Source of the DNA: a virus
Lineage: Duplodnaviria; Caudoviricetes
Strand: one strand, 5' to 3'
Length of the DNA: 60,673 nucleotides
Virus record (IMG/VR): IMGVR_UViG_3300036985_000346
Coordinates: 1 to 60,673 of that record
Made by a program: the position numbers and the translations under genes. Numbering within the stretch: the first letter of the stretch is position 1; each line of letters opens with the position of its first letter. This document shows, in pieces, positions 13,972-47,288 of the stretch. The notes below the pieces were generated by a model, which worked only from the letters and a program-made list of their open reading frames with translations, made no database searches and was not told where the DNA came from.

Positions 13972-14997
13972 ATGAAGATTCCCGAGTCAGAGCATAACAT
14001 TCAGTCGTTGATTGACAAGCACCATGAGGCCATTGCCGAGGTGCCTCGCCCACACCTTGGAGCCAGTACCCTTGGCCATGTGTGTGATCGGTGGCTGTGG
14101 CTGTCTTTCCGCTGGGCTGTGCAGCCGAGTTTCCCTGGTCGAATCCTGCGCCTGTTTAGGCGTGGCCACCAAGAGGAGGCCAACATCATTAGCGACCTGC
14201 GTGCCATTGGCATCGATGTTCGAAAGGTGTCTGCCCAGCACCGTGTGGACTTTGGCAGCCATGTGTCTGGCAGCATTGATGCGATCATCGACAAGGGTGT
14301 GCCAGATGCGCCCAAGTCCAAGCACATTGCCGAGTTCAAGACGGCATCCAAAAAAGCATTTGATGATCTGGAGAAGAATGGCGTGGAGAAGTCCAAGCCT
14401 GAGCACTTTGTGCAGATGCAGGTCTACATGGCTGGCACTGGCATCGATCGTGCGCTGTACTTGACTGTCTGCAAAGATGACGACCGCATCCACACCGAGC
14501 GCGTGAAGTTCGACAAGGATGTGGCAGGCAAGGCTATTGCTCGCGGCCAGCGCATTGCTTTGAGTGACCGCATGCCTGAGCCGATCAGCTCAGATGCGAG
14601 CTGGTATCAGTGCAAGTTCTGCGATGCGCATGAGTTCTGCCACCAGTCCAAGACCACCAAGCATGTGAACTGCCGCACCTGCGCTTTGGCCACAGCGATG
14701 CCTGACTCGACTTGGCACTGCGCCAAGTGGGATGCTGAGATTCCTTTGGATTCGCAGCGCACTGGTTGCGAGTCGCATGTCTTGCATCCCGATCTGGTGC
14801 CTTGGCAGCGCAAGGATGGGCCTGACGAGTTCACCGCTGTGTATGAGATCAATGGCGTGAATCTGGCCAATGGCGATCCTGAACAGGAAGGCGTTTGGGG
14901 TAGCAAGGAGTTGCTGGCCAATTCCAATGCCTGCGCCAGCGGTGATCCTTTGATTGCCGAGATGCGCAAGGACTTTGGTGGAAGGATTGTGGGATGA
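13972..14997 (+). CDS. PD-(D/E)xK exonuclease, Cas4/AddB-like with putative Fe-S cysteines
   Basis: GHVCDR, GSIDAI, AEFKT, QMQVYM, CKFCDAHEFC. Confidence 0.8.
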   Translation: MKIPESEHNIQSLIDKHHEAIAEVPRPHLGASTLGHVCDRWLWLSFRWAVQPSFPGRILRLFRRGHQEEANIISDLRAIGIDVRKVSAQHRVDFGSHVSGSIDAIIDKGVPDAPKSKHIAEFKTASKKAFDDLEKNGVEKSKPEHFVQMQVYMAGTGIDRALYLTVCKDDDRIHTERVKFDKDVAGKAIARGQRIALSDRMPEPISSDASWYQCKFCDAHEFCHQSKTTKHVNCRTCALATAMPDSTWHCAKWDAEIPLDSQRTGCESHVLHPDLVPWQRKDGPDEFTAVYEINGVNLANGDPEQEGVWGSKELLANSNACASGDPLIAEMRKDFGGRIVG

Positions 14998-15835
14998 ACA
15001 AACAAGGAGAATTGAATGAGCTGGCTTTATTCGCAGGCGCTGGTGGAGGAATACTTGGGGGACATTTGCTCGGATGGCGAACCGTCTGTGCAGTCGAATG
15101 GGAACCCTACGCAGCTTGCGTACTTGTCGCCAGACAAAATGACGGAGTTCTCCCGCCTTTCCCGATTTGGGATGATGTTCAAACCTTTGACGGACAACCG
15201 TGGCGAGGAATTGTTGACGTTGTTTCGGGAGGCTTTCCCTGTACGGACATTTCCATCGCAGGCCGAGGCGCAGGACTCGATGGAGAGCAGTCCTCAATGT
15301 GGTACCACATGGCGAGGGTGGTTAGCGAAGTTCGACCCAGATTCGTATTCGTGGAAAACAGCCCAATGCTCATTCATCGAGGACTCGGACGAGTCCTTGG
15401 CGACCTTTCCAGTCTCGGGTATGACACGCGATGGACTGTTATGGGAGCAGTCGATGTTGGCGCACCGCATCAAAGGGACAGAGCGTGGATTGTGGCGCAC
15501 GCCAGACACGGGGGGGGGGGGACCTCTGGCCTACTCAAACAAGGCCAGAATCATCGAAAGAATGGCCAGCCCATCCAGATCAGATTGGTGGACCAAGTGA
15601 ACAATCCAAGGCTGTGGCCAACACCAGTGGCCAGAATGCACAAAGACGGTGGAAATCCATCGGAGTACAAGAGGAACGAAATCCCCCTAGCGGCACAGGC
15701 TGGTGGGCCTCTGAACCCAACGTGGGTCGAGTGGCTGATGGGGTGGCCGCAAGAGTGGACCGACTTAAAGCCATTGGCAACGGACAAGTTCCAAAAGTGG
15801 CAGCAACAGTCTGGAGACTTTTAAATGCTCCGTGA
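14994..15835 (+). CDS. DNA cytosine-C5 methyltransferase, large polypeptide; frameshifted at G12 as assembled
   Basis: Motifs I (LFAGAGG), IV (GGFPC), VI (ENS), VIII (HQRDR) upstream of the tract; motif X-like RLKAIGNGQVP in another frame ending 15835. Confidence 0.8.
15016..15824 (+). CDS. Overprinted +1-frame methyltransferase polypeptide (motif IX carrier); frameshifted at G12
   Basis: MSWLYSQALVEEYL ORF with AGGAG upstream; one extra G joins it to LWPTP...LNPTWVEWLMGWP; same frame pairing kept in the B relic. Confidence 0.65.
15510..15521 (+). repeat. G12 homopolymer
   Basis: Twelve consecutive G; the longest homopolymer I noticed in the window. Confidence 0.95.
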
Positions 15836-17414
15836 CTATCAACAGCGCACCATCGACGAGCTGTACCGATGGTTTGAGGCTGGCAATGCTGGCAACCCAT
15901 GCCTAGTGCTGCCAACTGGCTCAGGCAAGTCGCACATCGTGGCCGCGCTGTGCAAGGATGCCCTGCAAAACTGGCCAGAGACTCGGGTGCTCATGCTGAC
16001 CCATGTCAAGGAGCTGATTGAGCAGAATGCCGAGAAGATGCGCCAGCATTGGCCTGGTGCACCGATGGGCATCTACAGTGCCAGCATTGGCCAGAAAGAC
16101 TTGAGCGAGCCGATCACCTTTGCTGGCATCCAGTCGGTGCGTACCAAGGCCGGTGCGCTTGGCCACATCGATCTGGTGATCATCGACGAGTGCCACTTGG
16201 TCAACCACAAGGACGAGGGTGGATACCGCAAGCTGCTTGGTGAGTTGAAGACCATCAATCCGCACCTGCGCGTGATCGGCCTGACCGCCACGCCTTACCG
16301 CTTGGGGCATGGCCTGATCACAGACAAGCCTGCGCTGTTTGACGACTTGCTCACGCCTGTCAGCATCGAGGAGCTGGTGTTCAAGGGTTATTTGGCCACG
16401 CTGCGCTCCAAGGTCACCAAGGCCAAGCTGGATGTGACTGGTGTGAAGAAGCGTGGTGGCGAGTTCATCGAGTCAGAGTTGCAGGCTGCTGTGGATACCG
16501 ACGATAAGAATCAGGCTGTGGTGCATGAGGTCATGGGCTTGGCCGGTGAGCGCAAAGCATGGCTGTTTTTCTGTGCTGGCGTGAAGCATGCCGAGCACGT
16601 TGCCGAAGTCTTGCGCCAGCAGGGTGTGACCGCTGAGTGCGTGACTGGCGAGACACCAAAAAAAGAGCGCGAGCGCATGCTGGCCGACTTCAAGGCAGGC
16701 CGTGTGCGTGCGCTCACCAATGCCAATGTGCTGACCACTGGTTTTGACTATCCCGACATCGATCTGGTGGTGATGCTGCGCCCCACCATGAGCGCCAGTC
16801 TTTATGTGCAGATGGCAGGCCGTGGCATGAGGGTCAAGAGCCACACCGATCATTGCCTGGTGCTCGACTTTGCAGGTGTGGTTGAGTCGCATGGTCCGAT
16901 CACCAATGTGCAGCCACCAAAAAAGGGTGGCGATGGCAATGGCGAGGCACCAGTCAAGGTGTGCGATCACTGTGGTGAGTTGGTGCACATCTCGGTGATG
17001 CTTTGCCCTTCATGCGGTGAGCAGTTTCCTGAGCCAGTAAAAAAATCAATGGTGTTGCGAAATGACGACATCATGGGTCTGGATGGCCAAGAGTTAGAAG
17101 TGACTAGCTGGACATGGCGCAAGCACATCAGCAAGGCCTCTGGCATTGAGATGCTGGCCGTGACTTACTACGGTGGCCTGAGCGATACACCGATCACCGA
17201 GTATTTGCCAATCATGCATGAAGGCTATGCAGGGCAGCGTGCAATGAGCCAGCTGCTGAGTATCGCCAACAGCGCCAGCATTGTGCCTGGTGGTCTGAAT
17301 GTGAAGACGCTGGAGGACATGGTGCAGAACATGAACATGGCCACGCCACCAGAGTGGATCGAGTATCGCAAGGATGGGAAATTTTTTAGGGTAATAAAAA
17401 GGAGTTGGACATGA
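15825..17414 (+). CDS. SF2 DExH helicase with Zn finger (RadD/YejH-like)
   Basis: LRDYQ, PTGSGKS, DECH, TAT, QMAGRGMR, CDHC...CPSC. Confidence 0.9.
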   Translation: MLRDYQQRTIDELYRWFEAGNAGNPCLVLPTGSGKSHIVAALCKDALQNWPETRVLMLTHVKELIEQNAEKMRQHWPGAPMGIYSASIGQKDLSEPITFAGIQSVRTKAGALGHIDLVIIDECHLVNHKDEGGYRKLLGELKTINPHLRVIGLTATPYRLGHGLITDKPALFDDLLTPVSIEELVFKGYLATLRSKVTKAKLDVTGVKKRGGEFIESELQAAVDTDDKNQAVVHEVMGLAGERKAWLFFCAGVKHAEHVAEVLRQQGVTAECVTGETPKKERERMLADFKAGRVRALTNANVLTTGFDYPDIDLVVMLRPTMSASLYVQMAGRGMRVKSHTDHCLVLDFAGVVESHGPITNVQPPKKGGDGNGEAPVKVCDHCGELVHISVMLCPSCGEQFPEPVKKSMVLRNDDIMGLDGQELEVTSWTWRKHISKASGIEMLAVTYYGGLSDTPITEYLPIMHEGYAGQRAMSQLLSIANSASIVPGGLNVKTLEDMVQNMNMATPPEWIEYRKDGKFFRVIKRSWT

Positions 17415-29445: not shown

Positions 29446-29887
29446 TGCCGAACTCCTTCATGTAGTCTTCAAATTTCTCGCCATACAACTCCATGACCAA
29501 GTGAGCATTCTTTGTGGCAAATCCTGGGCCATGCGTAAGCGATACGGCCATCAGGATTAGGTCATAGTAGCCTGCACGCCAGACAAATGATCTGGCATCA
29601 GCCTCGCCTGCACGCTCTGCTTGGTCAGAGGCTTGCCACTTTAAGATCATGGCCGCGAGTAGTGGCACGAGATGGTGGCTGTTGGAAATAAAAAATTGGT
29701 TTTGGTGCATGCCCACCAGTGTGTTCCAGATGGCTGCATTCAGGTCTTTGCGCTCTACCGTGTCGCCATCGGCAACATCGTCAAACACCTGAATGGCATC
29801 GTAGACCATGACGAGCCATTCCACGACTGGCGTAGGCAACATAAGAACTCTTTGCAGGTTCTCCTTGAGCCATTCGATACCAATCAT
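29438..29887 (-). CDS. Alpha-helical protein with DDxxDxD motif (isoprenoid synthase/prenyltransferase-like, 149 aa)
   Basis: QVFDDVADGD; ATG 29887 with CAGGAG RBS; overlaps the gp7-like start. Confidence 0.55.
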   Translation of the reverse strand: MIGIEWLKENLQRVLMLPTPVVEWLVMVYDAIQVFDDVADGDTVERKDLNAAIWNTLVGMHQNQFFISNSHHLVPLLAAMILKWQASDQAERAGEADARSFVWRAGYYDLILMAVSLTHGPGFATKNAHLVMELYGEKFEDYMKEFGNA

Positions 29888-29969
29888 GTGCAACTCCTGT
29901 TCAGGGTGAGCTGCTGGTGGCCCGATAGACTCAGCGCCTTTATTTTCCCACATTTTGGCATTTGGTCAA
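29888..29969 (-). promoter_or_regulatory. Candidate promoter (TTGACC-N16-GAAAAT) and structured leader
   Basis: Aligns with 60190-60277, with a compensatory pair change. Confidence 0.5.
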
Positions 29970-30367
29970 TCTTCCATTTCAAATTCACGTTCTTCCCATG
30001 CCTGGCAGACGCGAAGATCATGGCAGATGAACTCGAATTTGGTGCAGTAGCCACGGAAACCGGCATCGGTGTCCCACTCATTGCGGGGAATGCGCTCCAT
30101 CTTGGCCTGCGTCATGGTGCTGTTGTCGTAGTACTCGCAGTTCGAGCAGCGACGACGACGAGCTTCTTTTTCGTCCACTTGCATGGCCTTGCCCACAGCG
30201 ATCCAGTAGGTTTTGTTGGCCGTTGGCTCGTTGCTTGGATTCTCAGGGCCAAGCATCCAGTCGTCGATGGCCACCTGAGTGTTCTTCTTGTTTTCTGCTG
30301 TGGTGATGAATTCTTCCTCCATCGGCAGGCCCATAAAGCCCTTGGGCATCATCATGAATTTGTCCAT
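29966..30367 (-). CDS. Conserved Cys-containing protein (133 aa)
   Basis: CSNCEYY...GYC...CHDLRVCQAW; homolog 60274-60673. Confidence 0.75.
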   Translation of the reverse strand: MDKFMMMPKGFMGLPMEEEFITTAENKKNTQVAIDDWMLGPENPSNEPTANKTYWIAVGKAMQVDEKEARRRRCSNCEYYDNSTMTQAKMERIPRNEWDTDAGFRGYCTKFEFICHDLRVCQAWEEREFEMED

Positions 30368-30381
30368 GCTGTTCTCCTTGA

Positions 30382-30717
30382 TTAAGTGATTTCGCGGCCA
30401 GATGCGCGGATGGTCAGCGATGTGGCTGCGCTGGCAATGGTTGAAATGAAGCTACCAGACTCAAGCGCTTGTCCAACCAGCTCTGGGCAGGTATAGGTCT
30501 CATCGGGTGCAATGGCGCGAGTGTCCATGATCAAGTTGGACGCGCCAGCGCTTCCACCACTTGTCACCAAGTTGACGCTTATCGTCACATTGCCTGCGCT
30601 GGTGTTGGTGATCGTGAACTTGTCAATGATTGCCTTGCAGTTCACTGCTGTGTACTGCGTGGTCTGGGCGTTTTCAGCCTGCTTTGGTGGGATTAGCACC
30701 TTGATTGATACGGTCAT
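30382..30717 (-). CDS. Small beta-rich virion protein (111 aa)
   Basis: In tail operon; AAGGAG RBS; ends SGREIT. Confidence 0.7.
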   Translation of the reverse strand: MTVSIKVLIPPKQAENAQTTQYTAVNCKAIIDKFTITNTSAGNVTISVNLVTSGGSAGASNLIMDTRAIAPDETYTCPELVGQALESGSFISTIASAATSLTIRASGREIT

Positions 30718-46134: not shown

Positions 46135-47160
46135 ATGAAGATTCCCGAGTCAGAGCATAACATTCAGGCGCTAATTGACAAGCACCATGAGGCTATTGCT
46201 GAGGTGCCGCGCCCACATCTTGGAGCCAGTACGCTTGGCCATGTGTGTGATCGGTGGCTGTGGCTGTCGTTTCGCTGGGCTGTGCAGCCGAGCTTCCCTG
46301 GTCGAATCCTGCGTCTGTTCAGGCGTGGCCACCAAGAGGAGGCCAACATCATCAGCGACTTGCGTGCCATTGGTATCGATGTGCGCAAGGTGTCGAGCCA
46401 GCACCGTGTGGACTTTGGCAGCCATGTGTCTGGCTCGATTGATGCCATCATCGACAAGGGTGTTCCAGAAGCGCCCAAGACCAAGCACATTGCCGAGTTC
46501 AAAACCGCATCAAAAAAGGCGTTTGACGATCTGGAGAAGAATGGCGTGGAGAAGTCCAAGCCTGAGCACTTTGTGCAGATGCAGGTCTACATGGCTGGCA
46601 CTGGCATCGATCGTGCGCTGTACTTGACTGTCTGCAAGGATGATGACCGCATCCACACCGAGCGCGTGAAGTTCGACAAGGATGTAGCAGGTAAGGCAAT
46701 CGAGCGTGGCCAGCGCATTGCTTTGACTGATCGCATGCCTGAGCCGATCAGCTCGGATGCGAGCTGGTATCAGTGCAAGTTCTGCGATGCGCATGAGTTC
46801 TGCCACCAGAGCAAGACCACCAAGCATGTGAACTGCCGAACTTGTGCTTTGGCCACAGCGATGCCTGACTCGACTTGGCACTGCGCCAAGTGGGATGCTG
46901 TGATTCCTTTAGATTCTCAGCGCACCGGCTGTGAAGGCCATGTCCTGCACCCTGATCTGGTGCCTTGGCAGCGCAAGGATGGGCCTGACGAGTTCACCGC
47001 TGTGTACGAGATCAATGGCGTGAATCTGGCCAATGGCGATCCTGAGCAGGAGGGTGTCTACGGCTCCAAGGAGTTGCTGGCCAATTCAAATGCCTGCGCC
47101 AGCGGTGATTCGTTCATTGCTGAAATGCGCAAGGACTTTGGTGGAAGGATTGTGGGATGA
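46135..47160 (+). CDS. Cas4-like exonuclease B
   Basis: Homolog of 13972-14997. Confidence 0.8.
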   Translation: MKIPESEHNIQALIDKHHEAIAEVPRPHLGASTLGHVCDRWLWLSFRWAVQPSFPGRILRLFRRGHQEEANIISDLRAIGIDVRKVSSQHRVDFGSHVSGSIDAIIDKGVPEAPKTKHIAEFKTASKKAFDDLEKNGVEKSKPEHFVQMQVYMAGTGIDRALYLTVCKDDDRIHTERVKFDKDVAGKAIERGQRIALTDRMPEPISSDASWYQCKFCDAHEFCHQSKTTKHVNCRTCALATAMPDSTWHCAKWDAVIPLDSQRTGCEGHVLHPDLVPWQRKDGPDEFTAVYEINGVNLANGDPEQEGVYGSKELLANSNACASGDSFIAEMRKDFGGRIVG

Positions 47161-47288
47161 ACAAACAAGGAGAATTAAATGAGTTGGCTTTATTCGCAGG
47201 CGCTGGTGGAGGAATACTTGGCGGGAAACTTCTCGGATGGCGAACAGTCTGTGCCGCCACAGCATGGAGAATTCTGAATGCTCCGTGA
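47157..47288 (+). pseudogene. Internally deleted C5 methyltransferase relic (43 aa, plus nested 32-aa frame 47179-47277)
   Basis: MNKQGELNELALFAGAGGG...RTVCA fused to ATAWRILNAP*; +1 frame MSWLYSQALVEEYL...QHGEF*. Confidence 0.85.

Follow-up and report, generated by a model that had tools for sequence, protein, structure and literature searches.

Does a run of twelve guanines inside the coding sequence of a phage methylase gene act as a genetic switch, or is it an accident of sequencing, of decay or of decoding? The question is raised by IMG/VR virus record IMGVR_UViG_3300036985_000346 (Duplodnaviria; Caudoviricetes), whose whole 60,673-nucleotide stretch we refer to as the window. Positions 14994-15835 of the window are one gene read in two frames, an alpha frame that carries the catalytic motifs of a DNA cytosine-5 (C5) methyltransferase and a beta frame overprinted on it, and the G12 tract lies within both. 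It is the sole run of at least 9 G/C in the window (0 of 100 shuffled sequences had as many matches) and the sole G or C homopolymer of at least 7 in 60,673 bases with 53% G+C. As judged from sequence comparisons, the tract is probably a contingency locus, by which methylation of the phage DNA would be turned on and off heritably and reversibly, and the G12 allele of the window is predicted to be its OFF state.

A methylase gene read in two frames

The frame layout of the initial annotation, which had placed motifs I-VIII in the frame of 14994, an overprinted +1 open reading frame (ORF) from 15016, a motif IX-like segment after the tract in the first frame and a motif X-like segment in the third, is exact by ORF reading. 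Residues 11-171 of the 14994 frame match PF00145 (E 5e-30), and a profile of alpha relatives aligns with M.HhaI over residues 16-179 (E 2.9e-17), both matches covering motifs I-VIII. Motifs I (FxGxG), IV (PC, with the catalytic Cys), VI (ENV) and VIII (QxRxR) were found in this order in alpha. The alpha chain corresponds to phrog_363, and its ATG overlaps the stop of an upstream exonuclease-like gene (ATGA, 14994-14997). The beta ATG follows 22 bases later and opens a +1 ORF that spans 15016-15600 in the window (194 amino acids, aa). This ORF had no match in Pfam, nor had any of seven beta chains searched there (0 of 7), and a beta profile against the sequences of the Protein Data Bank gave a single chance match (E 2); against phrog_1008, beta scored E 2.1e-12.

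Homologs of the +1 product are widespread beneath methylase genes of other phages. A tblastn search with the 194-aa product matched 37 phage records, all under cytosine-methylase genes, and in all eight GenBank loci examined (phages of Acinetobacter, Salmonella, Pseudomonas, Mycobacterium, Streptomyces, Vibrio and Microcystis, plus one uncultured phage) the match fell in the +1 frame of the annotated methylase, which was open for 202-298 codons. The dual-coded gene proposed at the outset is thus borne out by an open, homologous second frame in every one of these loci. Annotators have chosen either frame: the +1 product of Pseudomonas phage phPA-G is listed as a hypothetical protein, and some Paenibacillus phage records carry two methyltransferase features under the match. 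In four proteobacterial loci, the alpha and beta starts are four bases apart (ATGAATGAGCTGG) and adjoin the stop of the upstream gene. Among the best 80 of 335 relatives found in a survey of viral contigs, both chains are complete in 29; an intact alpha ends in motif X and an intact beta in an LNPxWVEWLMGWPxxWT segment, which we presume to resemble motif IX.

The arrangement of the Streptomyces phage phiBT1 (locus L006 of our survey, 1200-2334) is different in detail. Its alpha frame stops right after motif VIII, and its record states that the product "may be inactive"; in its +1 frame lie the recognition part and the IX-like segment, with motif X (GNGVVP) as well, so that across the family motif X is placed in either frame.

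At the tract, the N and C modules of the two chains meet, and the number of guanines sets which are joined. Downstream of G12 the frame of 14994 reads ...WPTPVARMHKDGG...LNPTWVEWLMGWPQEWTDLKPLATDKFQKWQQQSGDF, with LNPTWVEWLMGWP as the post-tract segment in that frame. This is the C module of beta: it matches the beta C end of L017, L020 and phPA-G, and residues 235-274 of the resulting product match the beta-tail families phrog_26627 (E 6.8e-14) and phrog_35493 (E 8.4e-07). The G12 allele therefore joins the alpha N module to the beta C module in a 276-aa hybrid ORF, the hybrid of motifs I-VIII and IX without X that had been described for it, and the same fusion was read in 14 other loci. The beta N module ends in a 25-codon tail, and the motif-X tail of alpha is not reached: RLKAIGNGQVP lies in the third frame, within an ORF at 15431-15835 whose C-module tail is the same in the alpha chains of L017 and S9-5. 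Motif X (GNGQVP) is consequently not in the same polypeptide as motifs I-VIII in the window, and the two are joined in L017 and L053.

One G more or two fewer would bring both chains into register, the in-register lengths being 13, 10 and 16. Such alleles exist in nature, at G13 in L017 and eleven other loci and at G10 in L053; both L017 and L053 encode a full alpha (motifs I-VIII together with X) plus a full beta (the +1 ORF and the IX-like segment), which confirms the expected frame arithmetic and the re-registering of both chains by one tract. In alleles with G11 or G14, the alpha N part runs into the 25-codon tail, as had been foreseen for truncation of the large chain at G11. A check for homologs with non-G glycine codons at this site, also suggested at the outset, is answered by L074, in which an interrupted 13-base stretch occupies the tract site and beta reads ...GLWRTPDTGAGGTSGLLKQG, in register. 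The in-register length is thus fixed at 13, and the Gly codons need not be all G.

We modelled the association of the chains with alpha (280 aa) and beta (269 aa) of L017, the closest in-register relative, each given a 28-row alignment. The interaction prediction score from aligned errors (ipSAE) was 0.89 in three runs, and the highest of three controls scored 0.07; of 80 solved complexes 58 attain the mark applied to it, as do 2 of 110 mismatched pairs, counts that are only a rough guide here as custom alignments were used. The predicted local distance difference test (pLDDT) of the partners did not fall below 67, and the runs had 66% or more of their contacts in common. Modelled contacts joined beta 229-267 (the IX-like segment and tail) to alpha 251-268 (motif X) and alpha 41-52, including beta 235-249 (IX-like) with alpha 251-268, and beta 133-140 to alpha 144-149. 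The model supports a two-chain enzyme in which alpha and beta would associate. Folding of beta alone (28-row alignment) gave a mean pLDDT of 35.5 and no usable model, and folding of the G12 hybrid (15-row alignment) gave a mean of 30.1 with even the catalytic domain unmodelled, so that result is uninformative. Beta probably supplies target recognition, because in alpha motifs VIII and X are separated by no more than a short linker (about 65-90 residues, poorly conserved).

The G tract among relatives of the phage

A run of 10-17 G occupies the homologous site, 495 bases after the beta ATG, in 48 of the 80 viral loci; another 10 end before the tract site, and 22 are without a run. In a tree built on the 485 bases upstream of the tract (71 rows), those with the tract fall in one clade with a Shimodaira-Hasegawa-like approximate likelihood ratio test (SH-aLRT) support of 99, made up of 47 tract rows, the window included, and 3 contigs that end just before the tract. 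The tract is uninterrupted in all 47 rows. It is a character of this clade, and not a private defect. L074 (around base 1995) has downstream sequence of the tract clade yet groups with tract-free loci on the upstream tree, and this difference in placement gives a hint that the modules recombined where they meet.

Another 68 metagenome loci and 2 contigs from metagenome-assembled genomes (MAGs) came from a pattern scan; the pattern required at least 9 G, so that shorter runs were invisible to it. The pooled set came to 119 tract loci, 110 of them distinct, with 3 runs of 9 G, 8 of 10, 22 of 11, 34 of 12, 22 of 13, 15 of 14, 3 of 15 and one each of 16, 17 and 18 (mean 12.3, standard deviation 1.5). 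Register was defined as the frame offset between the alpha N module and motif X, to which the offset between beta and the IX-like segment was always identical. The 92 classifiable distinct loci were divided almost evenly, with 29 in register, 32 at offset 1 and 31 at offset 2, the type of the window (chi-square p 0.93). By comparison, all 17 tract-free relatives in which both motifs were found were in register (Fisher p 5e-8 versus the pooled set). Relatives in all three registers are what a phase-variable switch, as first proposed, predicts.

Register is without phylogenetic signal: across 40 rows 20 changes are needed, where 200 shuffles gave 19.1 on average (range 14-24), and the rows nearest to the window in the tree have G12, G11, G14, G14 and G13. 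At a finer scale, 10 classes of loci with identical 100-base flanks on each side show more than one length (for example 13/14/18, 12/16 and 11/13), some of these classes coming from one sample series, as judged by contig names. Nine sets of loci share both flanks and length, and several of these are one contig present in both collections.

The sequence beyond the tract has stayed coding whichever way it is entered. In 41 of 42 tract loci neither downstream frame meets a stop before its usual end (about 100 and 103 codons), in any register, and in 40 of 42 alleles, that of the window among them, the third frame is closed 25 codons on. The sole locus of the 42 with an interrupted downstream frame, L016 (1995-2390, G13), has a deletion just after the tract that closes the beta frame after one codon and leaves the motif-X frame open. 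The clade has some depth: its flanks have a tree length of 1.985 changes per site and a pairwise identity of 77-100% (median 85.5%), with 340 of 793 columns variable.

We examined the recurrence of G12 itself in contigs assembled from public runs. Two of these runs, X2 and X4, belong to two other studies and each have one contig across the tract with zero differences from the window over 192 and 201 letters (at depths of 12 and 66, depth not being used as evidence), and G12 is thus reproducible for the strain of the window. In a further run, X1, which holds the sequence best and may be the source sample, the contigs identical to the window break off within the tract, at 15515, at most hinting at mixed lengths. 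Divergent relatives carry one extra letter at the tract in X1 and X2 and two in one X4 relative. The homopolymer sequencing error considered in the initial annotation is disfavoured, both by the three registers among relatives and by the recurrence of G12 in independent contigs.

A proposed contingency locus and its competitors

The mechanism that we propose begins with a gene that would encode a two-chain C5 methyltransferase in two fully overlapping frames. Alpha, from ATG 14994 and coupled to the stop of the upstream gene, would comprise motifs I-VIII, a short linker and motif X; beta, from ATG 15016 with a Shine-Dalgarno-like site of its own, would comprise an N domain, W-P-T-P motifs and the IX-like segment, which is predicted to pack on motif X of alpha. 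Within a single clade of uncultured freshwater phages, the stretch that links N module to C module, in both chains alike, has turned into an uninterrupted poly-G, the length of which replication slippage would alter. At lengths of 3n+1 (G10, G13, G16), both chains would be complete and the enzyme ON. At 3n (G12), the alpha N module would be fused to the beta tail, beta would be shortened and motif X would not be made; at 3n+2, alpha would be shortened and the beta N module fused to the motif-X tail. The last two registers are predicted OFF because their motif sets are incomplete, and a single insertion or deletion would flip both subunits, because the gene is dual-coded and the run lies at the N/C linker of both. 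Plausibly, the phage would gain by hedging its bets between hosts whose restriction acts on unmethylated DNA and those whose restriction acts on methylated DNA. Switching within populations, the activity of the enzyme and this benefit are the parts of the proposal that we infer.

Several observations argue for a contingency locus: the run has a single origin and long retention, its length changes independently of the tree, the registers are equally frequent and the downstream coding is intact. The repeat lies within a gene and is unusual for its genome, its length varies between near-identical genomes, and the downstream frames of OFF alleles are intact, as in recognised loci of this kind. The description of the locus as a three-state switch is better replaced by one ON state and two putative OFF states, because only one register yields all motifs.

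A number of points weigh on the other side. Equal register frequencies imply no net selection for ON, and the whole gene is dispensable in relatives, as seen from its deletion in a second genome copy within the window and from joints that skip it in X1, X3 and X4. The same G12 allele in three data sets suggests that the majority allele is fairly stable. The pass of the complex model may come from likeness to solved single-chain C5 methylases. The flanks hold invariant runs of 19, 14, 11, 10 and 10 columns, against which the purity of the tract is not statistically exceptional; with invariant flanking runs of 10-19 columns, purity was rejected as stand-alone evidence of selection. Finally, the tract lengths rest on contigs, and long G runs are hard for short-read assembly: the contigs of L045, L054, L062, L031 and L043 stop 1-32 bases after the tract, those of L046, L048 and L055 stop at its start, and the post-tract tails of L031, L052, L054 and L062 look garbled. 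Some surveyed lengths may be miscounted, perhaps by one.

The rival explanation that survives best, which we nonetheless consider unlikely, is a recoding site at which slippage of RNA polymerase or the ribosome would give a mixture of alpha, beta and hybrid at every tract length, making the genomic register irrelevant. Equal registers are expected if register is neutral, the downstream frames are kept intact in 41 of 42 loci despite register, and by frame arithmetic a -1 shift inside the run restores both chains at once in window-type alleles. Against this, RNAalifold on 31 sequences found no conserved RNA structure within 90 bases downstream (-1.97 kcal/mol, compensatory change in 1 of 13 pairs), and programmed sites normally keep one genomic register, where here all three occur; the locus thus has neither the downstream structure nor the single conserved register of a programmed ribosomal frameshift. 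Efficient transcriptional slippage is documented mainly for A/T runs. To a combinatorial recoding node we give slightly less credence still. Slippage of DNA, RNA and ribosome on 12-14 G's would here yield fixed proportions of alpha, beta and both cross-fused chains, much as paramyxoviruses obtain P, V and W through G's inserted at an editing site, and this would explain equal genomic registers with every downstream frame intact.

It is improbable that the tract is in truth an in-frame G13 miscounted in the assemblies, with no switch at all. The bell-shaped length distribution around 12-13 would suit such an error, as would the contigs that break at the tract, some with garbled tails, including the exact X1 contigs that end inside it. 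Two thirds of the 92 loci would need to be wrong, however, over lengths that span 9 to 18; the same strain has the same length across data sets (G12 in the window, X2 and X4), and the tract-free relatives from the same pipelines are in register without exception. We put a similarly low probability on decay, in which the methylase would be dispensable in the clade and the tract a mutational hot spot for losing copies. The deletion of the gene from the second genome unit of the window, the X1, X3 and X4 contigs that skip it, the further deletion that breaks the beta tail of L016 and the lack of enrichment for ON alleles all fit that explanation. Lasting OFF copies would, however, gather stops and interruptions, and over 1.985 changes per site 41 of 42 loci have kept about 100 codons open in both downstream frames, with the third closing after 25, and the tract is uninterrupted in 47 tract rows.

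It is very doubtful that the G12 hybrid and the G11/G14 products are alternative enzymes of other activity or specificity, giving three working states: the hybrid is a complete 276-aa ORF shared as a fusion with 14 other loci, and phiBT1, with IX and X both in its beta frame, indicates that motifs can change frame, but the hybrid is without motif X, the packing partner of the IX-like segment in the complex model and a part of the cofactor pocket in solved C5 methylases.

Genomic setting and known systems

The features of the locus, together with a remnant of the same gene found later in the window, are collected in Table 1.

Table 1. Positions in the window of the parts of the two-frame methylase gene, its G tract and the second-unit remnant.
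Feature	Position	Strand	Basis
Alpha N module, C5-methyltransferase motifs I-VIII (FAGAGGG, GFPCTDIS, ENSP, QRDRAW)	14994..15509	+	PF00145, M.HhaI matches
AAGGAG, Shine-Dalgarno-like hexamer (putative function)	15004..15009	+	6 bases before beta ATG
Beta N module, +1 frame, MSWLYSQALVEEY ... GLWRTPDT, overprinted on alpha catalytic domain	15016..15509	+	ORF, phrog_1008
G12 tract, junction of N and C modules; Gly run in both frames	15510..15521	+	Direct reading
Alpha C module, third frame: DLWPTQ ... RVDRLKAIGNGQVPKVAATVWRLLNAP (motif X); orphaned at G12	15521..15835	+	ORF 15431-15835
Beta C module: second W-P-T-P motif, LNPTWVEWLMGWPQEWTDL (motif IX-like), tail	15522..15824	+	Read in alpha frame at G12
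Third-frame tail, 25 codons then stop; beta N module enters here at G12	15522..15600	+	ORF reading
Methylase-gene remnant in second unit (~88% identical), 43-codon ORF	47157..47288	+	Unit comparison

The methylase gene sits as a cassette between two genes, overlapping the stop of one and the start of the other. The upstream gene (13972-14997) encodes a weakly matching YqaJ/Cas4-like nuclease (E 0.0015 and 0.02, below Pfam cut-offs), and the downstream gene (15825-17414) a ResIII/DEAD-type helicase with a zinc ribbon; the stop of the alpha C module overlaps the start region of this helicase gene (ATG 15825).

The window as a whole consists of two related phage genome units of ~33 kb in tandem (1-33178 and 33179-60673), about 76-96% identical block by block; its listing is that of a single linear virus record with a completeness rating of 100%. 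A tandem or concatemer of two strains could be real, or the assembler may have gone round a strain bubble two times. A Burkholderiaceae MAG includes a 33,367-base contig that bears the tract too, which fits the ~33 kb unit. In the second unit, 708 bases equivalent to 15092-15799 are deleted, and the remnant ORF joins the first 32 residues of alpha in frame to its last 11 and still ends at the helicase start. The same deletion joint is present in an X1 contig, and other contigs of X1, X3 and X4 skip the whole gene. The tract was also found in a 2.7-kb contig binned in a Luteolibacter MAG, and the window has 81% DNA identity over 230 bases to Ralstonia phage Gerry; neither the MAG bins (Burkholderiaceae, Luteolibacter) nor the Gerry identity is strong enough to name a host.

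The closest known gene architecture is that of M.EcoHK31I from E. coli HK31, described as a two-chain C5 methylase whose chains have to associate, in which alpha holds motifs I-VIII, motif X and the target recognition domain (TRD), and a small, nested beta, encoded in another frame inside the alpha gene, carries motif IX (Lee, Kam and Shaw 1995, as described in PMC2836561). The likeness to this enzyme drawn in the initial annotation holds for a C5 methylase with a second chain in the other frame of the first chain's gene. It does not extend to proportions: beta is here about as long as alpha (269 and 280 aa in L017), unlike the small nested beta of M.EcoHK31I, and the recognition domain is probably in beta and not, as there, in alpha. 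We know of no poly-G switch in M.EcoHK31I. In the literature we found no full-length two-frame phage C5 methylase besides M.EcoHK31I, and no poly-G switch in a two-frame C5 methylase, with the limit that the supplementary tables of Gomez et al. might list methylase loci.

Repeats that switch methylases are familiar from bacterial phasevarions (for example Type III mod genes), where a simple-sequence repeat in the methylase ORF turns the enzyme on or off. Those are host genes acting on gene regulation and restriction; here a phage gene is concerned, presumably serving self-protection, and two chains are affected together.

Among phages, a published precedent is bpm of Bordetella phage, for which a G stretch in the methylase ORF and a frameshift proposed to control expression are attributed to Liu et al. 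2004 (PMC4791379; bioRxiv 10.1101/2025.10.21.683753). In agreement with this, we found G8 at 29922-29929 on the minus strand of Bordetella phage BPP-1 (NC_005357; L162 in our survey), inside bbp30/bpm (29758-30513). The two loci share a homopolymeric G run within a phage DNA methylase ORF. They differ in that bpm is of the N6-adenine class, with a single frame, a shorter run and three closely related phages, whereas here one run re-registers two overlapping chains and has been kept over more than 100 distinct loci in a clade. Contingency loci of T2/T4 are reported as shown experimentally (Gomez, Barrick and Waters, bioRxiv 10.1101/2025.10.21.683753), and polyG tracts in receptor-binding genes of Campylobacter Fletchervirus phages are cited in the same preprint (Sorensen et al. 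2021). Like the present tract, these are hypermutable homopolymers in phage coding regions with reversible frameshifts, read as bet-hedging. Their runs are shorter (6 or more, or 7-11), their genes are single-frame and their proof is experimental; here 9-18 G's lie in a dual-coded gene, and the evidence is comparative.

What is new is the clade-wide tract in a two-frame methylase, in which two known kinds of system, a contingency locus and a two-chain, two-frame methylase, are combined. Two-frame genes of this sort are routinely annotated as one "broken" or ordinary methylase, with the second chain missed, and the clade supplies many natural alleles (G9-G18). If the proposed switch is real, it would be a clear natural case of one slippery repeat controlling two overlapping genes at once, and uncultured phages would vary their own DNA modification through contingency loci, which bears on how phages may hedge between restriction systems that cut unmethylated DNA and those that cut methylated DNA.

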